From contig DDWV01000001.1 in assembly GCA_002347045.1 (NCBI GenBank), positions 223,381 to 287,380 of the forward strand: a stretch of 64,000 nt of DNA, in the 5' to 3' direction. The DNA comes from Candidatus Collierbacteria bacterium UBA2277 (GTDB lineage Bacteria; Patescibacteriota; Microgenomatia; UBA1400; MFAQ01). The first letter of the stretch is position 1, and every line of letters starts with the position of its first letter. The notes under the pieces were generated by a model that was not told the origin of the DNA, searched no databases, and saw nothing but the letters and a program-made list of their open reading frames with translations. Both the position numbers and the translations under genes were made by a program. Below, in pieces: positions 2,700-24,979 of the stretch.

Positions 2700-3409
2700 T
2701 GAAAAATTCGAACTGATAATGATTGGACACTCATAAGATATGCTTGAAAGAGGCCAGCTAAGCCGTCCAAAAAGCCCATTCTGAAAATATAGTTCTGAAT
2801 AAATTTTGCCTTAGGGAGAAAAAATAATCTCCAGTAAGTAAAAGGTTTGTTTTCTTTTTCAAGAGATTTTGCGTCAATAAGTCCGTACTGTGCCATTCTG
2901 TCCGAGAACTCCGAGACGAAACTATCTTTAATATGATAAAGAGGAGAAACTATCTCTTTGATACTCCCCTTTACTTTCCATGTTTCATGGACAGGACGAG
3001 AAAATTTGCCTGAGTTTTTTCTTGCTAACCGTAGGATTTTAGTATGTCCTGTTTCGCCATGCAGTAGTGGTTGATGAAAGCATACATCTATCCTTGGGAT
3101 GAGATAGCCTCGATTTTCTTTTCTATTGATCACGCTTTGTATTTCTCTGGCAAGCTCTGTGCCAACATACTCATCGTCGTCCACAAACAGAACCCAATCG
3201 CTTTTCGCCTTTTGTAGGGCAAAGTTTCTTTGATCTGCAAAATTTGAGTTAAGAGGCCTGAATATGTGTTTTATGATCCCTTTTTTATATTCATTTTTGT
3301 ACTTATCTGTGTCTGTTATAACCAGTATTTCGTCTGCAAAAGAAATCGATTTTAGCAACAAGCCAGGTATCTCCTCTTTTTTAGAAAGTATTACTACAGA
3401 TAATGACAT
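2675..3409 (-). CDS. Family 2 glycosyltransferase
   Basis: N-terminal 'VVILSKKEE...DEILVITDTD' followed by the DxD-type 'VDDDEY' motif. Confidence 0.6.
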   Translation of the reverse strand: MSLSVVILSKKEEIPGLLLKSISFADEILVITDTDKYKNEYKKGIIKHIFRPLNSNFADQRNFALQKAKSDWVLFVDDDEYVGTELAREIQSVINRKENRGYLIPRIDVCFHQPLLHGETGHTKILRLARKNSGKFSRPVHETWKVKGSIKEIVSPLYHIKDSFVSEFSDRMAQYGLIDAKSLEKENKPFTYWRLFFLPKAKFIQNYIFRMGFLDGLAGLFQAYLMSVQSLSVRIFQWEKEKQS

Positions 3410-5447: not shown

Positions 5448-6213
5448 ATAACAAATAGAATGGCAAACTTGTGACAGGAAGGTGTCTGCGACAAAATCTA
5501 AGATGACTATTGGCTAGAATAATCAATTTTTTCTTACCTAGTTTGTTTGTACTCATAGAAAGATGGTGGAATATCTTTACCGATGGACAAAATCCTAAAC
5601 AAAATCCTTTTTCGACAGCCCTTAGGCAATAGTCTGCATCCTCGTAGTAGAGAAAAAAACCATCATCCAACTTTCCTGCCACATCTAGAACTACCGAAGG
5701 AATCAAAAGACAAACGCCAGAAAAATAATCTGGTCTAATATTTGTGTTTTTACTTAGGTGATAGTTTCTTCCAAAAAACATGTCTACTTTGCCACCATAG
5801 TCATAAACAGCTTTTCCTTTGTCTTTGTACTCTACTTTTGGTGAGATAATGTCCCCTTTAGTTTTCAAAAGCTTTTGGAGAAAGTCTTTACTTTCTACGG
5901 TTGCGTCGTTGTTTATTAGCAAGACGAAGTCTGCCTTCATTTTCTTGGCGTAATCTAGACCTAGATTATTCCCCCCAGCAAAACCTAGATTTTTCTTTGA
6001 AAATATAAATTTTACCTTTGGAAATTTCTTATTTAGATTTCGTGACTCTTCTTCTACGGATCCGCAGTCGACAACTAGTAAGGTTAAGTCTATGCCGTCT
6101 TTGTTTATACCCTTAAACGACTTAAGACAGTCTTCTGTAAGGGCTGCGTTGTTGTAATTTACTGTAATTACTATAATTTTTTTATTTCTTTGTTTCATAA
6201 AATATTTTTTCAA
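5410..6213 (-). CDS. Family 2 glycosyltransferase
   Basis: 'IIVITVNYNN...LLVVDCGS...LINNDATV' GT2 signature. Confidence 0.7.
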   Translation of the reverse strand: MKKYFMKQRNKKIIVITVNYNNAALTEDCLKSFKGINKDGIDLTLLVVDCGSVEEESRNLNKKFPKVKFIFSKKNLGFAGGNNLGLDYAKKMKADFVLLINNDATVESKDFLQKLLKTKGDIISPKVEYKDKGKAVYDYGGKVDMFFGRNYHLSKNTNIRPDYFSGVCLLIPSVVLDVAGKLDDGFFLYYEDADYCLRAVEKGFCLGFCPSVKIFHHLSMSTNKLGKKKLIILANSHLRFCRRHLPVTSLPFYLLFNLYLRAKTLLP

Positions 6214-7276
6214 GTTTCGAGACTGTCTTTTCCCAAGTAAAGAATTTTTTTACTGCCTCTACCCCATTTTTCCCCATCTCTGACTGAAGTTCGCTGTTTG
6301 ACAATAGCATAGATATTGAGTCGGCAATTTTTTGGGGGTTTCTTTCTGTAAGCAGGCCTGTCTTTTTGTGAGTGACTGTTTCCCTAAAGCCTCCCTCACA
6401 AACAGCAATCACAGGTGTTCCGCAAGCCATAGACTCAACTACTGACAGGCCAAAAGGCTCTAAATGCGCTAAAGCTAGAGTGACTCTTGATTGATTGTAA
6501 ACTGTACATAGATCTTTTTGGCTCAGACTAAGAAGTAGTTTGATATCAACCCCTTTCTTTTTGGCAAAATTGACAATTGGCTTCATACTATTCTTTCTGG
6601 GTGAGGCGATAACTAATACTGGTCTAATTTTCTTATCCACCAAAGAGACTGCTTCTATAGAAAGCTTTAGATCTTTTTGCGGTTCATTGTTTCCAATGAC
6701 TAGAAGTTGATTTTTCTTGGCTATTTTTTTAGGGAAGTATTCTTTGGGGTCAACTCCTAAGTGAACTGGAATTGCATTTACTCCATAACTTCTAAATATG
6801 GACTCTACTGAGAAATAAGAGTTTGCTACTGTAACAGTGGCTTTTTTGGCACTAACTATTTCGATGTTTTTTCTGACTTGACGATTAATTTTCTCGTATA
6901 TTCTGTTTGGCAACGGAAGACTCGGGTCTATTTTTAAAAATTCTTCAAAGAGTGCTCGAGTTGGCTCCTGACAAAGAAAAACTGTAGGAGTTTTTAGGAA
7001 CCTTAGGATCCAGGGGGCCTGTGAATGTCTGTCGTGAGATACAAAACAAAGGTCAAAGTTTTTCGAGTCGATGTGTTTGGCAAGTTTGCGTTGCTTTATT
7101 CTTTGCAAAATAATAGATTCAAGATCAATAAACAGTCTATTCCGACTGGTCCACTTGGAGTTTTTTGGATCAGAAAAGAGTGTTATTTTATGTTTCTTGT
7201 TCAAAAGTTTCTGAACTTCTTCCATAGTTCGCGACGCTCCTCCTGAAGGAAGGTCTGAAAAGAAAGCGATCTTCAT
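6182..7276 (-). CDS. Family 4 (GT1-fold) glycosyltransferase
   Basis: C-terminal 'EPFGLSVVESMACGTPVIA' motif. Confidence 0.7.
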   Translation of the reverse strand: MKIAFFSDLPSGGASRTMEEVQKLLNKKHKITLFSDPKNSKWTSRNRLFIDLESIILQRIKQRKLAKHIDSKNFDLCFVSHDRHSQAPWILRFLKTPTVFLCQEPTRALFEEFLKIDPSLPLPNRIYEKINRQVRKNIEIVSAKKATVTVANSYFSVESIFRSYGVNAIPVHLGVDPKEYFPKKIAKKNQLLVIGNNEPQKDLKLSIEAVSLVDKKIRPVLVIASPRKNSMKPIVNFAKKKGVDIKLLLSLSQKDLCTVYNQSRVTLALAHLEPFGLSVVESMACGTPVIAVCEGGFRETVTHKKTGLLTERNPQKIADSISMLLSNSELQSEMGKNGVEAVKKFFTWEKTVSKLEKIFYETKK

Positions 7277-8577
7277 TCTCTTTCAATTGCCATCATCTCC
7301 TTTGTAAAAATTCGCCAAGTTACAAACAAAAAAGGTGGCACGGTAATAACTGAAGCCAAGAGGACACCGTATGCGACACCAACCACTTGATATTTTGGAG
7401 TTAGTATTAGGATTAAAATTATTTCTGTGACAACGGTAAAGACAGCAAAAAATGACGGAATTTGAGGTTTGTTCAAACTTTGTAAAAGGACTGAAGGAAT
7501 GGGTGTGAGAGCTGTGAGAACAAAATATATACTTAGGATTTTTAAGACGGGATATGCCGCCTCAACCACGACGGCGTCTTTAAGCCACCACATGAGGAAT
7601 TCTTTTCCAACTGAGAAGGACAGAAAAATGGCCAAGATGCCACCGATAAAGGTAAGTAACTGAATAGCAATTACTGAAGCCCTGAGCTTTCTAACCCTTT
7701 GCTTTTCCAGCAGTGATGTACCAAGTGGAAAAAAAGCTTGAGCAACTTGTGAGACTACTCCAGCCCCTTTGGCGACAATACTCTGGGGGATACTAAATGC
7801 AGTAATTGCCTGAGCTGAAACCATTACCCCTAAAGCATACTTGGAAAACTGGGCTTCGATTTGACTTGCAAGAGTTCCAACAAAGTTTTTGAGACCAAAA
7901 CCAACCAAAATTTTGCCTTCATTTTTGTAAAATTTTGGCAAGAAGTTCTTACCAGAAAATATTCTAGAAGAATAACGAGCCATAAAGATAAGTGTAAGTA
8001 TATGGAAAACTAACTGAAGAAGGAAAATGAGTGAGATATCAGGATAGTAGCCAGAAAATATTGCCGAGAGAATTGTGTTGGCAGACCCTACGAGAAGAGT
8101 TTTTGAGTTGAACACATCAAACCTTTGTTCTGCTTGAGGAAGACTTAGTAAGTGTGAGTTGATGTGGTTTATGAAAACGGTAATTGTCAGTATTAGAATT
8201 GTAAGGTTTAGCGTTAGTGGGTTCACGTTTTCAAGCAGTGGCAGTGAGTTGCTAAGGTATATTAAGATTGCAGAGATAAGCAAGGAAAGAACTATGCCGA
8301 TTATTAAGAAAAGACTAAAAGATGTTTTCCATGTCTGTATCCTTTCGCTGTCTTTTAAATTTGGAAGTGAAAGGCGGCGAACAACAGCGTTTGATATACC
8401 AAAATCAAATACGGAAGCAAGTGGAACTATAGAGCCTAAAAATAGATACACTCCAAACATATCGCTGCCAAGATTTCTAAGTAGTATGGAGATAGAAAAA
8501 AAACTAGCTAGTAATAGATAGACATAGCTTGCTAGATTAAATCCTGTGTTTTTAATTAAGCTTTTTTTTAGTGACAT
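7273..8577 (-). CDS. Wzx-like oligosaccharide flippase / polysaccharide biosynthesis protein (MOP superfamily)
   Basis: 434 aa with about 12 TM helices and a Wzx-like N-terminus. It is embedded among glycosyltransferase genes. Confidence 0.6.
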   Translation of the reverse strand: MSLKKSLIKNTGFNLASYVYLLLASFFSISILLRNLGSDMFGVYLFLGSIVPLASVFDFGISNAVVRRLSLPNLKDSERIQTWKTSFSLFLIIGIVLSLLISAILIYLSNSLPLLENVNPLTLNLTILILTITVFINHINSHLLSLPQAEQRFDVFNSKTLLVGSANTILSAIFSGYYPDISLIFLLQLVFHILTLIFMARYSSRIFSGKNFLPKFYKNEGKILVGFGLKNFVGTLASQIEAQFSKYALGVMVSAQAITAFSIPQSIVAKGAGVVSQVAQAFFPLGTSLLEKQRVRKLRASVIAIQLLTFIGGILAIFLSFSVGKEFLMWWLKDAVVVEAAYPVLKILSIYFVLTALTPIPSVLLQSLNKPQIPSFFAVFTVVTEIILILILTPKYQVVGVAYGVLLASVITVPPFLFVTWRIFTKEMMAIERE

Positions 8578-9659
8578 GAAATTTCTTCGTAGATTTTTTT
8601 TATTTTTTTGGCAGTTTTTTGACAGTTAAATCTTTCCTCAGCCCTTTGACGGGAGGCGATTGAAAGGGATTGCCTTAGATTTACATTATAAATGAGTTTC
8701 TCTAGGTTTGTTTTGAGTTCGTTGATATCTGAATGTCGAGATATGAGAGCAACATCTCCGCATACTTCAGGAATTGCGCCGCTATTTGTAGTAACTATAG
8801 GAAGTCCGCAGGCCATTGCCTCTAGAAGGCACATGCCATACTGCTCCTTCCATGTTTTTGTTTCCCTGCTTGGTAAGCAGAAAATGTCTGCTTTTTGGTA
8901 CTCTTTTTGAATTTGATGGTAGGGGATTGATTTTACAAATACGTTTTTGAACCCTACTAATTCTGATTTTAGCGGTCCGGAGCCAACGAAAGTAAGATTA
9001 ATTTTTTGATTATTTTCTTTGAGTGACAGGAATGCCTTTAAAAGATCCCCTACACCTTTTTCCGGAACGAGTCTGGCCACACATAAAATATTTACTTTTT
9101 TAGTTTTCTTTGCCGATAGATTTGGTTTGAATTTTTTGAGATCAATACCCATGTTCACTACGGATATTTTTGCTGGCGATACCCCCTCTTTGATTAGAGC
9201 TTGCTTGGCTTTTTCGGTGACGGCAATGAAATGATCGATGTTTTCGTATGCCATTCTTTTATACTGTTTTCTTCCTTTTATACTTTCATTACTAAAGGGT
9301 ATTATTTCCCAAACAGTGCTAACGACCCTCCTTACCATTCCCCTTCTCTTGGCCACAACAGCTTGATATGTATATCCATAATATGTTTCTGCTACGTGGA
9401 CAATATCCGATCCTTTTATCATTTTTTCAAGTCCAAATAGCCTATGGGCGTCTACAAATATTCTGTTGAGCACTGGATACTTGTATGGAAAATTTGGTAG
9501 ATCTGTAGGTGACCATAATTTTTCCAATGGCAAATCGATATTGCTTGATATGGGATGTTTTGAGGAATACACTGAGATTTCGAATGATCTTCTTAGACTG
9601 CTGTAGTTTTGAAGCTCAAAAGGGTTTAAAAAGGCTCCTCTAACGATTGATATTTTCAT
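8568..9659 (-). CDS. Family 4 glycosyltransferase
   Basis: 'EQYGMCLLEAMACGLPIVTT' motif. Confidence 0.7.
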   Translation of the reverse strand: MKISIVRGAFLNPFELQNYSSLRRSFEISVYSSKHPISSNIDLPLEKLWSPTDLPNFPYKYPVLNRIFVDAHRLFGLEKMIKGSDIVHVAETYYGYTYQAVVAKRRGMVRRVVSTVWEIIPFSNESIKGRKQYKRMAYENIDHFIAVTEKAKQALIKEGVSPAKISVVNMGIDLKKFKPNLSAKKTKKVNILCVARLVPEKGVGDLLKAFLSLKENNQKINLTFVGSGPLKSELVGFKNVFVKSIPYHQIQKEYQKADIFCLPSRETKTWKEQYGMCLLEAMACGLPIVTTNSGAIPEVCGDVALISRHSDINELKTNLEKLIYNVNLRQSLSIASRQRAEERFNCQKTAKKIKKIYEEISCH

Positions 9660-10522
9660 GTCCCAATTGACTTCTTCGTAATAATAATTAAATCATCAAT
9701 AAGGAATATCGTTTGTATCAATATATTTTTTACTACTCCAAAATGCTTTAAAAAATATTTTTTTCTTGACCACAACCACGAAGAATGCCTTATCCTATCC
9801 TTATTCTTACTGCTTGCCCCTCCGACATGAAGTATCTCTGATTTACTTGAATAGTAAATTTTATATCCAGCATTTTTTGCTCTCAGACAAAAATCAACAT
9901 CTTCTAAATACATAAAAAATGATTCATCAAACAATCCAACTTTGTTAAACAATGATCGCTTAACTAGCATATAGCCTCCTGTTATAACATCTACTGTAAA
10001 TGAGCTGTTTTGTTTTCTGTCTTGATAGTAGAAATATTTGTGCCATTTGTCATCACGGCGAAGTTTTCTAAAATTTGTAAAGTCGAAAATTCCAACCATC
10101 AAATTTGGAAATCTGAAATGAGAACCGCTTACCCTTCCCTCGTTGTCAATGGTGGCTCCCCCACATATTCCGGCATTATTTTTTTTAGCGCTATCAACCA
10201 AATGAAATAGTGAATTTCTCCTTAATATGGTGTCTGGATTCAATAACAGAACGTATTCACCATTGCTCTCTTTTATTCCCTGATTAACAGCGCAAGCAAA
10301 TCCAGCATTAACTTTATTTTTTAACAGTGATATGATTTTAAATCTTTTTTGTAACTTTAAGATTTTGATTACTGTGAGATCTGATGAGCAATTATCAATG
10401 ACAATTATCTTAGAGATTTCAAAATTTTTATTGTCGCTGTTTACAACAGATTCTATGCATTTATTTATATATCTTTCTGAATTAAATGTTACAATGATGA
10501 TTGTAAGGTTTGATTTTTGCAC
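9656..10522 (-). CDS. Family 2 glycosyltransferase
   Basis: 'LTIIIVTFNSERYI...IIVIDNCSSD...LLLNPDT' GT2 signature. Confidence 0.7.
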   Translation of the reverse strand: MQKSNLTIIIVTFNSERYINKCIESVVNSDNKNFEISKIIVIDNCSSDLTVIKILKLQKRFKIISLLKNKVNAGFACAVNQGIKESNGEYVLLLNPDTILRRNSLFHLVDSAKKNNAGICGGATIDNEGRVSGSHFRFPNLMVGIFDFTNFRKLRRDDKWHKYFYYQDRKQNSSFTVDVITGGYMLVKRSLFNKVGLFDESFFMYLEDVDFCLRAKNAGYKIYYSSKSEILHVGGASSKNKDRIRHSSWLWSRKKYFLKHFGVVKNILIQTIFLIDDLIIITKKSIGT

Positions 10523-10551: not shown

Positions 10552-13209
10552 ATGAAGTCCTGCATTTTGCTTCTTGTTGGGGTGATTATTGGAATCATAA
10601 CACTTTTTGGAATTCCAAAAACAGTTTTTGCTAATTATGATCTTAATGATAATTTTTCGTTTCTAAATAATTCAGTTTGGAATTTTATAAATAACAACGA
10701 AAATATTGAGATTGTCGACGACAATTTACGTTTAAGCGCTGCTAGTGGTTATAAATTCCCTTTTGTTACCCTTAAAAATAAATTGGATCTTGGAGACAAA
10801 TATATTATTGATTTAAGGTTTAAGTTTTCTGGTAATCTTTCGTATGGTAATGGAATTGTTTTTTCGCACATCACTCCATCGAATAACTCTTCAAAAGAAC
10901 TAGATTCAACTAACGTGATATTTCAAATATGGCCAAAAACTAGTGCCATCTGGGGTATTTGGTCACCCTTATGCGACTCAAGAGTGTCATTTTGTGTTGA
11001 TAATAAAAAATTTGAAGTACCGCTCTCCTCAACCCAGGCTACTTCAAACGAATGGCACGAAGTTAAGATAATTTACGAAAATAATACCTACAAAGTTAAT
11101 GTAGATAACACGTTGGTATTCAGCTCACTTAATACAGATTTGGGAATTACTGATATTTGGTTTGGAAACTATGAAAAATTGTTAACAGTTAATTCTTGGC
11201 CTAACTTATACATTGATTACTTATATGTTTATGATGATGTTGCAGAAAATGAACCTACGATAATTATTCCTGGGTTGGGAGCTAGTTGGGACTTGGGCGC
11301 TATGCTTACAGGTACGGATGGTAATAATTGGAATATTCCAAGTTTTATAAATGAATATGATGGACTAAAAAACTCTTTTATAAAAGCAGGCTACTCTGAA
11401 ACTGATGACCAGAATCTCTTTACATTTTCATATGACTGGAGAAAACCGTTGTCTGTTTTAGCCGAACGTTTAAATTCATTTATTGAAGACAGGGTTCCAA
11501 GTGGAAAAATTAATATTGTTGGACATAGCATGGGAGGACTAGTTGCCAGGGCGTATGTGGATTCTTACGGAGATACTAGAATCAATAAAATTGTTGCGGT
11601 TGGATCTCCAAACATGGGGTCAGTAAAGGCTTATGGTCCGTGGGAGGGAGCCACTGTTTGGGATGGTGCATGGTGGACGAAAGTTGCTCTAGATATTACT
11701 ACTCATTTTGGCGTTTTACCTGGAGAGCTGCCTGTTGATACTGTTCAGAGAAAGGTGCCTTCTTTAAAGGATCTTCTCCCAACTTACGATTTTTTAGTTG
11801 ACTCAACTAACTCAACTATTTCTTCATCTTCACTTATCCACAAGAATGATTATTTAAATTCACTTAATCAAAGTTCTGCTCTCAAAGGAGGAAAACTTAC
11901 GACGATTACCAGTCAGGACATACAAACTGAAAAACTTTTGAGGGTCGTTGCCCCTTCTAGTGAAGATGTATTAAATAATTTATGGACGGATGGAAAACCT
12001 TCAGAAACTGATCCATTTGTTTTTGTTGCGGGAGATGGTGTAGTAGTAAATGATAGTGCAAGAGGATTGTTTGATAATAACGTATTTGGAAATGGATGGC
12101 ATGGAGAACTTATTTCTCAAAAAAGAAATATTGAGAAAATATTTAATGTCCTTGGTTTGGATCCAAAGTTTGCTGTTGATGGAACAAGCGACAATAGACC
12201 TAATGTGTTTGTTGCGGCACTAAAATCTCCTGGGGAATTAGTAGTATGCGATTCAGATGATAATAAATGTGGTGATGATCTCGGTTTGTATTTTGATGAG
12301 GAAAAGCTATTTTTGTTGCCTGACTATAATAATCAGAGTTTAAAAATTCGCATTAAAGAAAAGGGCACCGGTTCTTACAGCCTCCACTTGGGAAATATTA
12401 ATGATGAATCAAATTGGATAGTAGCAGGTGGAAGACTGGATAGAGTTGGAGAGGTAGATTTTTTTGATATCTACAGTGATGGACACAGCTTGACAGCAAT
12501 CCAAGACACAACACCACCGAGCACCCCCCAAATATCTGGCTTTATCAATCCGACACTGGGATGTGGTGCAAGTACTCAGCTGCACACCATAACTGTAGAC
12601 TGGACAGATTCATGGGACAAAAATGGAGTACCCGGCTATGAATACAACGTAAACTATCCCATTGGGAATTTGAGGAAGGATTGGAGCACATTTTTTACTA
12701 CTTCTCAGTACAAAGGATCACTAAATGAAGGCGTTCACTATATAAAGGTTAGAACCAGAGATCTCGCTGGAAATGTGTCTGAGTGGTCGAATACATGTAG
12801 TATCACAGCTGACTGGACACCACCTAGCGTGACGATTGAGTCACCGAGTGAAGGAGTATACCAGTCGAAGTCTTTACCAGGCTTAAAATACACCGTAATT
12901 GACAATCTTGATGAGTCTCCTGTTGTAACTGTGACTGGATGGTCAAAGGAAAATGGCGAGCACACAGTAACAGTGACGGCAACAGATAAGGCAGAAAACT
13001 TCAACTCCGCATCAATTACCTATACTATTCAAAATCAAAAGCCAAAACCAGATTCAGATATGTGCAAAAAGAATGGCTGGAGAACGTTTGGACTATTTAG
13101 AGTCTTTCGTTTTAGAAATCAGGGAGAGTGTGTGAGTTATTTCAACAGAATGGAGCGTTTGAGAATAGTTACATTGAATAACTTGAAACGTTTGGGGTGG
13201 AGGAAATGA
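10552..13209 (+). CDS. Secreted multidomain protein: signal peptide, LamG/ConA-like lectin domain, alpha/beta-hydrolase lipase domain (PGAP1/LCAT-like, GHSMGG nucleophile elbow), C-terminal Ig-like repeats
   Basis: Signal peptide 'MKSCILLLVGVIIGIITLFGIPKTVFA'. Lipase motifs 'IIIPGLGASWD' and 'IVGHSMGGLVARAYV'. Ig-like domains 'TTPPSTPQISG' and 'DWTPPSVTIESPSEG...VTATDKAENF'. Cys-containing C-terminal tail. Confidence 0.6.
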   Translation: MKSCILLLVGVIIGIITLFGIPKTVFANYDLNDNFSFLNNSVWNFINNNENIEIVDDNLRLSAASGYKFPFVTLKNKLDLGDKYIIDLRFKFSGNLSYGNGIVFSHITPSNNSSKELDSTNVIFQIWPKTSAIWGIWSPLCDSRVSFCVDNKKFEVPLSSTQATSNEWHEVKIIYENNTYKVNVDNTLVFSSLNTDLGITDIWFGNYEKLLTVNSWPNLYIDYLYVYDDVAENEPTIIIPGLGASWDLGAMLTGTDGNNWNIPSFINEYDGLKNSFIKAGYSETDDQNLFTFSYDWRKPLSVLAERLNSFIEDRVPSGKINIVGHSMGGLVARAYVDSYGDTRINKIVAVGSPNMGSVKAYGPWEGATVWDGAWWTKVALDITTHFGVLPGELPVDTVQRKVPSLKDLLPTYDFLVDSTNSTISSSSLIHKNDYLNSLNQSSALKGGKLTTITSQDIQTEKLLRVVAPSSEDVLNNLWTDGKPSETDPFVFVAGDGVVVNDSARGLFDNNVFGNGWHGELISQKRNIEKIFNVLGLDPKFAVDGTSDNRPNVFVAALKSPGELVVCDSDDNKCGDDLGLYFDEEKLFLLPDYNNQSLKIRIKEKGTGSYSLHLGNINDESNWIVAGGRLDRVGEVDFFDIYSDGHSLTAIQDTTPPSTPQISGFINPTLGCGASTQLHTITVDWTDSWDKNGVPGYEYNVNYPIGNLRKDWSTFFTTSQYKGSLNEGVHYIKVRTRDLAGNVSEWSNTCSITADWTPPSVTIESPSEGVYQSKSLPGLKYTVIDNLDESPVVTVTGWSKENGEHTVTVTATDKAENFNSASITYTIQNQKPKPDSDMCKKNGWRTFGLFRVFRFRNQGECVSYFNRMERLRIVTLNNLKRLGWRK

Positions 13210-13212
13210 TAA

Positions 13213-13243
13213 AAAAACCCACCTAAATAGGTGGGTTTACTTT
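13213..13243. terminator. Bidirectional intrinsic terminator
   Basis: AAAAAAA-CCCACC-TAAATA-GGTGGG-TTT: a 6-bp GC-rich stem flanked by an A-run on one side and a T-run on the other. It lies between convergent genes. Confidence 0.6.
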
Positions 13244-13247
13244 CAAT

Positions 13248-13871
13248 TTATTTGATGGTAATCAACGCAGGGTTTACAACCCCGGAGTCACTATTGACTC
13301 CATACAGATCGTTGTGCCATTGTCGGAGCTGTTCTCCGTAAATCCAAACTTCGCAAAGAAATGCTACAACAATCCCATACATATAACCAGAGAGACCCTG
13401 GTCGTCTGCGATATCCATAGACTTATCAGCGCATTCTTCGAGAGTTTCCCCCAAAGAAATGCGATATTCCATGATTCGAGCCCATTGATCGGCGACTTGG
13501 ATAACTGCTTTGGAGTATGGAGAAGTCTGAACACGAAGAATATCTTCGTACGCTTCCTGATCCTTCACTGACATTTCAAATGGCGCGATTTGAAGCACCT
13601 CTTCCAAATCGGCCTTTCTAAGCGCTTCTATTTTTCTGTACTCTTCCTGGCGAATTGCGTACTGGGGAGATGCCAGATAACGCTTCTCTTTTTCAGCTCT
13701 CCTTTTGTAGAAGTTGCTGATAATTTCCTCGTGCGTCATTCCAGGAGCTGCTTTTACTGTAATTCCGTTGAACTTACACTTGATGACCTGGTGAGTCATT
13801 TTCTGCAAAACAATCATCTTTAAAACTACTACTTCAAGATGATCACCACCCCTTTCTTCCAAAATTATCAT
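13248..13871 (-). CDS. Hypothetical protein (207 aa), compositionally atypical (about 46% GC)
   Basis: Long ORF with a strong upstream SD (AAGGAGGAAG) and a near-consensus promoter. No family recognised. Confidence 0.5.
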   Translation of the reverse strand: MIILEERGGDHLEVVVLKMIVLQKMTHQVIKCKFNGITVKAAPGMTHEEIISNFYKRRAEKEKRYLASPQYAIRQEEYRKIEALRKADLEEVLQIAPFEMSVKDQEAYEDILRVQTSPYSKAVIQVADQWARIMEYRISLGETLEECADKSMDIADDQGLSGYMYGIVVAFLCEVWIYGEQLRQWHNDLYGVNSDSGVVNPALITIK

Positions 13872-13909
13872 TTCTTCCTCCTTGATCTATATTTGAATGT
13901 TCAGTCGGT

Positions 13910-13940
13910 AGATTTTATAACATTATGGGGTAAATGTCAA
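13910..13940 (-). promoter_or_regulatory. Sigma70-like promoter for the 13248-13871 gene: TTGACA-N17-TAAAAT
   Basis: Minus-strand read TTGACATTTACCCCATAATGTTATAAAAT, followed by AAGGAGGAAG and ATG. Confidence 0.4.
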
Positions 13941-14010
13941 TGTGGCTGAGTTTTTCTTTAGGCCTGCCTCGGTGTCGCCACACCTCCGGCTTTCGATTCC
14001 TATAATTATT

Positions 14011-14043
14011 TCTCATAAAAATAAAACTTCCTCGAGGGAAGTT
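14011..14043 (-). terminator. Intrinsic terminator downstream of tRNA-Val
   Basis: Minus-strand hairpin AACTTCCC-TCGA-GGAAGTT followed by TTTATTTTTAT. Confidence 0.4.
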
Positions 14044-14054
14044 CTATTTTTCTG

Positions 14055-14128
14055 TGGTCGCGACAGGAATCGAACCTGTGACCTCTGCAATGTGAATGCA
14101 GCGCTCTAACCAACTGAGCTACGCGACC
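14055..14128 (-). tRNA. tRNA-Val (anticodon CAC)
   Basis: Reverse complement reads GGTCGCGTAGCTCAGTTGGTTAGAGCGCTGCATTCACATTGCAGAGGTCACAGGTTCGATTCCTGTCGCGACCA. It folds into a canonical cloverleaf with anticodon loop TTCACAT. CCA is not encoded. Confidence 0.85.
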
Positions 14129-21733: not shown

Positions 21734-23278
21734 ATGAAAAAGGGAACATGGATTATTCTCATATTTGTTATAGTAGTAGTTTTAATTGTCTTTGGTCCAG
21801 GATGGACACTATCTAGTATTGCCAACAGCGTTTTCAATATTGACCCAGTAGCTTGGCTTCTGGGAACCATCGCTTTAGCATGCCTCGCCCTTTCATCATT
21901 AGTAAGCGATTCGGGAAATGATGGAGCAGGAAGATTATTTTTAGCTTTTATTGTTTTTGGTTTCGCCTGGTTGCTTTGGTTTATCTTCCAAGGTCCAATC
22001 ATGCTGAACAGCCTTTACAAAAACACTGGCTATATTGAGTCAGACTTGATCTCGCAAAACAACATCCGTGACGTGCCTTACACGGTTGCTATCACAAACA
22101 TCACTGGGACAAATCCAGAGTCGCGTACTGGTCCTGGTGACCTGGATTTTGTTGAAGGGGTATGGATTAGCTCAATCGACCCCAAAGGCGTATGGAACGC
22201 AATTTCTATGCCTACCCAAGGATTTTTTCTGTATGACCCCAGAAGTAAAGACAAGGTCGTAACCATTTCGCAGGAGATGCCTTACGCTGAAGGAGGGTTG
22301 TTTTTTAACTCGTCGACATATTTCGTTCGCAGCAAGAAATTTTTTGCTGAGTTTACAGAGATTCTTTATGTCCGAGTTAATGATACGGATGAGGTTGTTG
22401 GAGTCATGTCTCTTATCAAGAGACGGGGAATTTCTCGATGGCCATATGTGGCCAACGTGCTGGTTGTCCATGGGGACGGTCAGTATGAGATGCTTTCTGT
22501 TATTCAAGCAGAAGCTGATCCTCGACTTGTCAACATTGCACTCAAACCTGAGTGGTTGGTAAAAAAAGAAGTAGAGGCGTATGGGTATCGGTATGGAGTG
22601 ATCAAGGGAGTTTTTTCAAAAACTGGACGAATTCAAATCCAGAAAAGCTCGGTAAATGACGAAAACTCTCCACCATTTCACCTGAATACTCCTAATGGAT
22701 ATTTTTGGTATGCTCCTTTTTCACCACTGAGAAGCGAAAGTTTAACAGGCATTGCTATGACTTCGAGCCACGATGTTGATGGCCCTGTCTATGTGTGGAC
22801 CCTGCCCAAAGGGCAAGCCTATGTCGGCTCTGATTTCATGGTAGCCACCATTGAAGGGAAACACAAACAATATGCTTGGTATAGAGAAACAGAGGACTCA
22901 AAGTGCGGCAACATGACCGTGCTTGAGATGGTCCCTGTAGTCAAGAGTGAAAATGGGGAAAACAAATTGTATTTCTTGGGGTACGTTTCAACTGCCCCTA
23001 AGTCGGTTGATGTCTTGTTTTATACAATCATAGACCCTGAGACTGGCGTGGTATATGAAGATCTGCAAACAGCAGATCAAGTAAACTTCTGGCTTCAGAA
23101 CGGTGAGTACGACCTGATGCCGATTGGTGAGTATGAGATGACCCAGCCTGCAGTTGGGACTCCAGAAGTCTCTTGCGTTGAAGTTTCTTCGGAAGGACTT
23201 GAGGAAAAAGATACTCAAGATTTAATGGAAATCATCTTCAAGGTAATTTATGAGCTCGGGAGACGAGCTGACAAATAG
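21734..23278 (+). CDS. Hypothetical membrane-anchored protein (3 N-terminal TM helices plus about 400-aa extracytoplasmic domain)
   Basis: Strong SD AAAGGAGAAATAGGATATG. No recognisable family. A terminator lies 11 nt downstream. Confidence 0.5.
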   Translation: MKKGTWIILIFVIVVVLIVFGPGWTLSSIANSVFNIDPVAWLLGTIALACLALSSLVSDSGNDGAGRLFLAFIVFGFAWLLWFIFQGPIMLNSLYKNTGYIESDLISQNNIRDVPYTVAITNITGTNPESRTGPGDLDFVEGVWISSIDPKGVWNAISMPTQGFFLYDPRSKDKVVTISQEMPYAEGGLFFNSSTYFVRSKKFFAEFTEILYVRVNDTDEVVGVMSLIKRRGISRWPYVANVLVVHGDGQYEMLSVIQAEADPRLVNIALKPEWLVKKEVEAYGYRYGVIKGVFSKTGRIQIQKSSVNDENSPPFHLNTPNGYFWYAPFSPLRSESLTGIAMTSSHDVDGPVYVWTLPKGQAYVGSDFMVATIEGKHKQYAWYRETEDSKCGNMTVLEMVPVVKSENGENKLYFLGYVSTAPKSVDVLFYTIIDPETGVVYEDLQTADQVNFWLQNGEYDLMPIGEYEMTQPAVGTPEVSCVEVSSEGLEEKDTQDLMEIIFKVIYELGRRADK

Positions 23279-24219: not shown

Positions 24220-24873
24220 TTAGGCAAGCGATATTACTGATACAGACAGATCTCCATCTTGATAAACAAACACAAACTTTACCGGAGTGTCTTGGTTGTT
24301 CTTGATGTATAGATTTTTTTGTGCACCTACTGCGCTGTTATTTGGCATGTAGTAGATAGACACTCCATACTCTTTTGGGATCTCAGGGATGACGGCGAAG
24401 TTGTGATTTGAAGGCACTACTACATCAAGCTTTGCATCTTGAGCAGCCCAGTTTATAAGTGAAGCAAGGTGGCAAACACCGTCTCCATATAGATAGCCAC
24501 TAGACCTAAATCCATCTTGACTATTAAAATGAGCCTCTGTAGTCTTGACTACCAGCCCTTCATACTCAGGAAAAACAGCATCGTGATAAGCAAATACCTC
24601 GTTTGGTTGTAAGACGAACTCTGTTTTGAATGACTTCGTGATTTCGGTCCAGTTGATATCACTTGCATTGCCAACACGCCCATCAAGATAGGCTAGGTTT
24701 AACAAAATGTTGTCTTTGAAAACTTCACTTACACTAGCTACAGGATATCGGTTGTTAAGAGACATCTCTCGACTTGAGATAACAGTCTCTCTTACAGGAA
24801 TGATATTATTAGCCACATTAAGTCCGCCAGGAAAAAGCGCAAAATAGAATCCAATGATTAAATTTTTTATCAT
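24220..24873 (-). CDS. VanW-like domain protein, secreted
   Basis: Signal-peptide-like N-terminus and VanW core motif 'GDGVCHLASLINWAAQ' (compare GGGVCQVSTTLYNA). Confidence 0.55.
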   Translation of the reverse strand: MIKNLIIGFYFALFPGGLNVANNIIPVRETVISSREMSLNNRYPVASVSEVFKDNILLNLAYLDGRVGNASDINWTEITKSFKTEFVLQPNEVFAYHDAVFPEYEGLVVKTTEAHFNSQDGFRSSGYLYGDGVCHLASLINWAAQDAKLDVVVPSNHNFAVIPEIPKEYGVSIYYMPNNSAVGAQKNLYIKNNQDTPVKFVFVYQDGDLSVSVISLA

Positions 24874-24979
24874 AAGGCGCGTATTATATACTATTATAGG
24901 TCTAATGTCAATCTGAAAGTAAGCGAAAATTGTCCAAAAGTAGTACTATTATTTAGTTAGTATTTAATAAAAAAATAAT

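Follow-up and report, generated by a model that had tools for sequence, protein, structure and literature searches.

The subject of this analysis is a gene for a protein of 207 amino acids (aa) in a 64-kb stretch of bacterial DNA, the whole of which is called the window below and whose sequence is found unchanged within a 646,801-bp metagenomic contig (JGI 3300040971, Ga0242423_000004). The C-terminal half of the protein carries a domain of the Tad4 family, known for its role in phages, and the gene stands alone on a cellular chromosome, with its own expression signals, directly behind a transfer RNA (tRNA) gene (Table 1). A preliminary description of this DNA had reported the open reading frame (ORF), a TTGACA-N17-TAAAAT promoter, and a bidirectional terminator and a tRNA-Val gene as its boundaries. 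All of these were confirmed, and the strand, which had been left unstated, is minus. The same description had regarded the ORF as an orphan of no recognisable family from which no function could be read, and both statements are superseded by the family assignment that follows.

Table 1. The Tad4-like gene and its immediate surroundings, in window coordinates (L003 is a contig of a diverged relative, described in the text)
Feature	Position	Strand	Basis or remark
Bidirectional intrinsic terminator, common to the convergent 885-aa gene	13215..13238	.	core ACCCACCTATTTAGGTGGG identical in L003
Coding sequence (CDS), 207 aa, two-domain Tad4-family protein	13248..13871	-	ORF list, homologue alignment
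C-terminal Tad4 domain, aa 100-206, all-helical	13254..13574	-	PF25186, phrog_9822
N-terminal module, aa 1-99: small beta-alpha-beta-beta-alpha domain, then two long helices	13575..13871	-	AlphaFold2 model
Shine-Dalgarno sequence AAGGAGG, 5 nt from ATG	13877..13883	-	identical in L003
Sigma-70-type promoter TTGACA-N17-TAAAAT, 11/12	13912..13940	-	L003, same place: TTGACT-N17-TATAAT
Conserved 41-nt element 'A', upstream of the -35 box, with the hairpin GGTGT-GGCG-ACACC inside	13945..13985	-	twice in L003
Hairpin between tRNA-Val and the gene's own unit, T-runs on both strands	14025..14043	.	fold/terminator scan
tRNA-Val(CAC), same strand as the ORF, 183 nt upstream of ATG	14054..14128	-	Rfam RF00005, 75.4 bits

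The C-terminal domain matches the Pfam family PF25186, 'Type I Thoeris inhibitor Tad4', over profile positions 1–111 of 113 with 80.1 bits (curated cutoff 25; E 1.9e-22), and phrog_9822 with an E-value of 2e-27. In tblastn comparisons, the same residues share 38–41% identity with ~106-aa proteins of Bacillus myophages such as JBP901, BCP8-2, Bcp1 and Deep Blue. The most conserved stretch of the domain reads AD-x-(E/Q)-G-(I/L)-(T/S)-G-(F/Y)-M-Y-G, accompanied by W-H-N...G-V-x-N-P-A, and in an alignment that mixes short phage and long cellular members the window protein keeps 21 of the 21 invariant columns. The family is large: a profile search covering 1.84 billion representatives returned 1238 cluster representatives at E<=0.001 and 603 at E<=1e-10, and among the best 150 of the 1238 many are two-domain proteins of ~200–220 aa, with others consisting of the C-terminal domain alone. 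Judged by its sequence, the C-terminal half of the 207-aa protein is a genuine member of the Tad4 family. The full ORF found no match in NCBIfam or PADLOC, and a PDB sequence search with the protein returned nothing meaningful; there is no solved homologue on which to place the active-site loop described below.

The N-terminal module has no Pfam match. An AlphaFold2 model of the whole protein, built from a 41-sequence alignment, reached a predicted local distance difference test (pLDDT) score of 95.5 and a predicted template modelling (pTM) score of 0.80. In BFVD, the modelled N-terminal domain resembles many phage proteins of 60–75 aa (target-normalised template modelling score 0.7–0.85), and the C-terminal domain resembles a protein of mycobacteriophage Kumao. 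No other part of the protein has diverged as much as this module, which also occurs as a stand-alone protein (P0192–P0195). One of these, P0195 (113 aa, N-terminal module only), is encoded at 6001–6342 of contig L173, between the genes for peptide deformylase and Met-tRNA formyltransferase; the unannotated gap of 450 nt behind it might hold a decayed Tad4 domain.

Yirmiya et al. (Cell, 2025) reportedly described Tad4 as a weapon of phages against the Thoeris immune system. Three sources state that Tad4 makes direct contact with ThsB, the TIR protein of type I Thoeris, and that a flexible loop of Tad4 occupies the active site in which ThsB processes nicotinamide adenine dinucleotide (NAD+) (PMC13402655; bioRxiv 10.64898/2026.01.28.702374; bioRxiv 10.1101/2025.06.06.658234, supplementary table). 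The loop blocks the active site of ThsB, and the immune signal is therefore not made. Other direct-binding Thoeris inhibitors, Tad3, Tad5, Tad6 and Tad7, differ among themselves in sequence and fold (PMC13402655). The window protein would act as they do, as a small protein plugging the NAD+ site of an immune enzyme, although it has no sequence relationship to them. Its likeness to Tad4 itself extends over the 107 C-terminal residues, which match the family model and contain the invariant residues. Unlike the Bacillus phage members of ~110 aa, however, the window protein has twice that length, with an N-terminal module outside the Pfam model, and its gene is chromosomal, with no phage genes near and in a host that, as far as visible, is no Bacillus-type Thoeris carrier.

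The first ATG is taken as the start of the ORF because it lies 5 nt after AAGGAGG and because homologues align from residue 1. The ribosome-binding site (RBS) reads AAGGAGG-N5-ATG, i.e. AAGGAGGAAG-N2-ATG; the preliminary description had rightly noted a strong Shine-Dalgarno sequence and had erred in its spacing (N8). The 5' untranslated region (UTR) is ~35–40 nt long, and the terminator starts 9 nt past the end of the ORF. Upstream, the hairpin between the tRNA gene and the promoter probably ends the tRNA transcript. As to the earlier claim that these signals are among the strongest in the window, the promoter is indeed one of two sites in the 64 kb that agree with the consensus at 11 or more of 12 positions, the other being at 24911; the number of promoter-like sites, however, is not above chance (2 observed vs 2.4 +- 1.3 in shuffles). 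The promoter of the Tad4-like gene is supported by its placement and its conservation in L003. The second match is a perfect 12/12 TTGACA-N17-TATAAT (24883–24911, minus strand) upstream of a 217-aa VanW-domain gene at 24220–24873.

The surroundings of the gene are those of a cellular chromosome. On one side lie genes for isoleucyl-tRNA synthetase, RodA/FtsW, L21, a methyltransferase, L27, ParB and signal peptidase I, and on the other genes for a secreted lipase-like protein and glycosyltransferases; a division and cell-wall cluster and glycan-synthesis genes are found farther off in the window. Among the annotated genes of the 64 kb there are no phage genes, no integrase or recombinase and no mobile-element genes. 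Direct repeats of the tRNA 3' end flanking the segment, proposed in the preliminary description as something to look for, were sought in the window and not found: the 3' 18-mer of tRNA-Val has a single match there with up to 3 mismatches allowed, and a repeat search of the window gave no repeat flanking the Tad4-like gene. A 17-nt inverted repeat (88%) pairs 13196–13212, at the end of the 885-aa gene, with 13865–13881, at the RBS and start of the Tad4-like gene, and is probably due to chance.

When species-representative genomes and viral contigs were scanned with the family alignment, 105 and 323 relatives were found, respectively. The best full-length genome matches come nearly all from metagenome-assembled Patescibacteria, and the cellular relatives as a whole belong mostly to Patescibacteria and low-GC Clostridia. 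Several are solitary GC-rich genes among core genes: L049 has genes for L10, L7/L12 and tRNA-Val(CAC) upstream and for a beta-CASP RNase downstream, L005 is near DnaK, L037 lies between glyoxalases and a Mur ligase, and L064 lies between ParA and a glycosyltransferase. The same group includes L039, after RecG and tRNA-Leu, and L166, which follows tRNA-Ala and shares its small island with a TrwB-like ATPase. In a metagenome-assembled Clostridium (L023), a Mob_Pre relaxase gene (8654–9967) lies convergently and directly after the Tad4-like gene, a setting that recalls the anti-defence genes in plasmid leading regions. In phage-like contigs, full-length relatives occur among small early genes. 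One such contig (L168) encodes a homologue of Gad2 (anti-Gabija) at 6794–7735, two genes or 1.7 kb downstream of a full-length Tad4-like gene, and another (L169), a temperate phage, carries an integrase alongside its full-length relative, together with repressor-like genes, a primase-polymerase and methyltransferases.

The position beside a tRNA gene, to which the preliminary description had attached meaning, is no coincidence and recurs in the family. A tRNA on the same strand lies within 1 kb upstream of 12 of the 66 genomic copies, compared with 17 of 686 control ORFs of the same loci (p=1.2e-6); none of the 75 viral copies shows this adjacency, and no genomic copy has an upstream tRNA on the opposite strand within that distance. 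Moreover, three Patescibacteria lineages carry cassettes behind three different tRNAs (L049 7787–8800, L064 7585–8540 and L007 2100–3010), which share promoter (TTGACT-N17-TAAGAT or TAGGAT), 5' UTR, RBS and terminator. Between L049 and L064, nucleotide identity is 73% upstream, 77% in the CDS (67% in the N-terminal half, 86% in the C-terminal half) and 74% downstream, and the N-terminal divergence among the three cassettes suggests that this module may be exchanged. The L007 cassette, from Vogelbacteria, sits inside a cluster of four tRNA genes and is bracketed by 107-nt inverted repeats (1929–2035 and 3063–3169, 90% complementary). Additionally, four copies in Clostridia genomes of 25–30% GC (L036, L039, L058 and L069) each lie 445–831 nt after a different tRNA and have in common a 5' UTR (…AGCAGACTT…TAGTCAG…) and a terminator (…CTTTTCCTCGAAAGAGGTT…).

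How long the gene has been at its site can be judged from one diverged relative. A protein of 60% identity (P0002) is encoded in one other organism, on the 1.6-kb contigs L003 and L004, next to the same convergent neighbour and behind the same upstream region, including the 3' end of tRNA-Val. Synonymous divergence (dS) between the two genes is saturated in the N-terminal half, where the proportion of nonsynonymous differences (pN) is 0.29, and ~1.6 in the C-terminal half, compared with ~1.9 for the neighbouring gene; the ratio of nonsynonymous to synonymous divergence (dN/dS) is 0.14 for the Tad4 domain. Since the gene occupies the same site in a relative with saturated synonymous sites, its acquisition is old and selected, not recent. 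The preliminary description had named a clear housekeeping homologue with conserved synteny in relatives as a finding that would speak against its reading; of this, a conserved position is present, the gene lying at the same site in a diverged relative.

The relative also bears on the idea that a prophage or integrative element, once inserted in tRNA-Val, left the gene behind as a functionless leftover, the last gene by the attachment site, which has survived by chance. At positions 1–190 of L003 (and likewise in L004; corresponding to window 13945–14072), the body of tRNA-Val is absent and the last 20 nt are left, the break falling in the T-loop; ahead of these 20 nt come a further 17 nt and the 41-nt element in duplicate copy. 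The break could be the attachment-site junction of an element integrated in tRNA-Val, or an assembly artefact. Together with the position directly downstream of a tRNA, shared with the 12 of 66 relatives counted above, and the island behind tRNA-Ala in L166, a partial tRNA end broken as at an attachment site and a duplicated element would suit such a leftover. The gene, however, is old at its site and under purifying selection, which argues against a decaying remnant: its frame and invariant residues are intact in two lineages with saturated synonymous sites, and promoter, RBS and terminator are conserved; the window, for its part, has neither a repeat of the tRNA end nor an integrase. A decaying relic was accordingly rejected on the dN/dS, the intact invariant residues and the conserved expression signals, and we regard the leftover as very improbable; these observations are compatible with a gene that began as one end of an integrated element, but not with a loss of function. 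Compared more generally with tRNA-linked islets and remnants of integrative elements, the window gene is alike in lying directly 3' of a tRNA in the same orientation, an arrangement enriched among the family's cellular copies, and in the partial tRNA end on the relative's contig; it is unlike them in being a single-gene unit of ~0.9 kb.

Conservation between the two loci is strongest outside the gene. The 201-nt stretch that runs from the 3' end of the tRNA up to the ATG (window 13872–14072 vs L003 59–260) is 95.5% identical, compared with 65% for the CDS and 74% for the whole 1.57-kb alignment, and identity falls from the start codon on. This pattern raises the question of whether the constraint really stems from a non-coding element in its own right, a small RNA or a site bound by a protein, lying between tRNA-Val and the ORF, the more so as the neighbouring gene has diverged to the dS given above and the minus strand of the region folds better than shuffles (z = -3.6). 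The pair L049 and L007 echoes the window, its flanks (78% upstream and 85% downstream) being better conserved than the CDS (61.5%) and its N-terminal half being the most divergent. Against such an element, Rfam matches in and around the intergenic region were limited to the tRNA, both at the gathering threshold and at E<=10, the terminator hairpin supplies most of the folding energy, and the plus-strand fold is no better than shuffles (z = -1.3). The comparison rests, moreover, on two sequences: a metagenome-wide scan with the conserved upstream motif gave back the known contig and no other, and neither this motif nor the tRNA-Val 3' end had a match in viral scans. The same pattern could arise if related cassettes or attachment sites recombined with each other, and we consider a separate non-coding element unlikely. 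A plus-strand small RNA running from TTGAAT-N17-TATAAC to the hairpin at 14025–14043 was also considered and found weak, its -10 box lacking the final T, its promoter not being called by the scan and its fold having the z-score just given.

Base composition had been an argument of the preliminary description, which gave the gene 46–48% GC against 33–35% for its neighbours. These figures were overstated: the ORF has 43.1% GC, the window a mean of 39.1% and the flanks of +-4 kb 37.9%, an excess over the flanks of 5.2 points. This places the ORF at the 90th percentile of 624-nt windows, with at least 4 other ORFs of the window as rich or richer. Its GC content at third codon positions (GC3) is 43.8%, the window's highest by a small margin, and it ranks 6 of 54 in codon bias. 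The second-highest GC3 (42.5%) belongs to a 514-aa ORF at 21734–23278 (plus strand) with no Pfam family on record.

The compositional difference is far clearer among the relatives. The median GC excess over the flanks is 7.8 points for cellular copies and 1.1 for viral ones (p=8e-11), and an excess of at least 10 points is found in 33 of 77 cellular copies vs 1 of 80 viral copies; in the relatives, the GC-rich stretch coincides with the ORF. That amino-acid composition forces the excess was rejected, because viral copies span ~33–69% GC in step with their flanks. The earlier suggestion of a horizontally acquired and highly expressed gene thus stands in outline, its best support now coming from the relatives, while the composition within the window is mild.

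Taken as a whole, these observations make it probable, if by no means certain, that the gene was acquired horizontally, drives its own expression and encodes a phage-type inhibitor of TIR-domain enzymes that process NAD+, and that the cell has kept it through selection. Its source would most likely be a phage or another mobile element, from which it would have passed by horizontal transfer before being retained. The expression unit is self-contained and comprises the upstream hairpin, the strong promoter, the short 5' UTR, the strong RBS, the gene and the terminator, placed directly downstream of tRNA-Val(CAC), in a small-genome bacterium, probably one of the Patescibacteria (candidate phyla radiation, CPR), with no prophage around the gene; this placement of the host is suggested by the small contig, by its gene content and by the nearest relatives of the ORF. 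The product, a cytoplasmic two-domain protein, would be made constitutively and would inhibit a TIR-type NAD+-consuming enzyme; both the binding of a TIR protein and the identity of the target are inferred. Candidate beneficiaries include mobile elements, resident or incoming, that would pass Thoeris-like immunity, and the cell itself, through restraint of a cellular TIR enzyme or protection from the NADase toxins of other cells. The unit may have moved by capture at the attachment sites of tRNA-integrating elements, by recombination via its conserved flanks or by transposition, as the inverted repeats of L007 might indicate.

Some points weigh against a phage-type TIR inhibitor acquired in this way. 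Compositional evidence of horizontal transfer is weak in this window; no TIR, SIR2 or Thoeris gene was seen in the 64 kb, which are part of a 647-kb contig; and the N-terminal half might steer the protein towards a different target. On Thoeris in Patescibacteria, a search of the literature brought up nothing of use.

The question of who benefits opens a further alternative, in which the cell has domesticated the protein as a protector or regulator and not as an anti-Thoeris weapon, using the Tad4 fold either as an orphan immunity protein against the TIR or other NADase toxins of competitors or as a brake on one of the cell's own NAD+-consuming enzymes. A chromosome of core genes without mobile-element genes in the window would fit such a role, as would the long retention under purifying selection, the conserved and constitutive-looking expression signals and the many solitary copies in reduced-genome bacteria. 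Yet no partner or toxin gene is adjacent, and all functionally informative contexts found for the relatives are those of phages or a mobilisable element. The biochemistry would be the same as for a phage-type inhibitor, so that the beneficiary alone would differ. We see the domesticated protector as a rather unlikely alternative.

The phage-type inhibitor that we favour also invites comparison with phage 'morons', the extra genes recognised by Hendrix and colleagues, which have their own promoter and terminator and a composition unlike that of their neighbours. The window unit likewise has its own promoter and factor-independent terminator, with hairpins on both sides, both signals being kept in L003, and its composition is off from that of the flanks, mildly in the window gene and strongly in its relatives. 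A moron, however, lies by definition between conserved genes of a prophage, whereas the window gene and its relatives in L049, L005, L037 and L064 adjoin cellular core genes.

A broader and quite unlikely extension of the favoured reading would see the two-domain Tad4-like genes as self-expressing anti-immunity cassettes of ~1 kb that move between the chromosomes of reduced-genome bacteria (Patescibacteria, low-GC Clostridia) without a recombinase of their own. Such cassettes would land just downstream of tRNA genes and conserve their regulatory flanks, with the coding part, above all the N-terminal module, diversifying or being swapped. In episymbiotic Patescibacteria, they might serve a parasitic lifestyle against the TIR-based immunity or NADase attack of the bacterial host, and not a phage.

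The Tad4 family and its role in phages are already known; what appears to be new here is a two-domain, stand-alone chromosomal form beside a tRNA that recurs in small-genome bacteria. The long form, as a conserved and strongly promoted gene, would imply that cells, or mobile units of very small size, hold on to TIR inhibitors for their own benefit, and the 207-aa protein is a concrete candidate for how ultra-small symbiotic bacteria handle NAD-based immunity. The succession of tRNA, hairpin, strong promoter, GC-rich gene and terminator may furthermore serve as a genomic signature for finding more such genes.

The convergent neighbour that shares the terminator encodes an 885-aa protein (10552–13209, plus strand) with a hydrophobic N-terminus, hydrolase domains of the lipase/PGAP1/LCAT type and a faint Big_13 match. 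Its last 229 residues are 74% identical in the relative that carries P0002, and conservation is markedly higher in its last ~30 codons than in the remainder.

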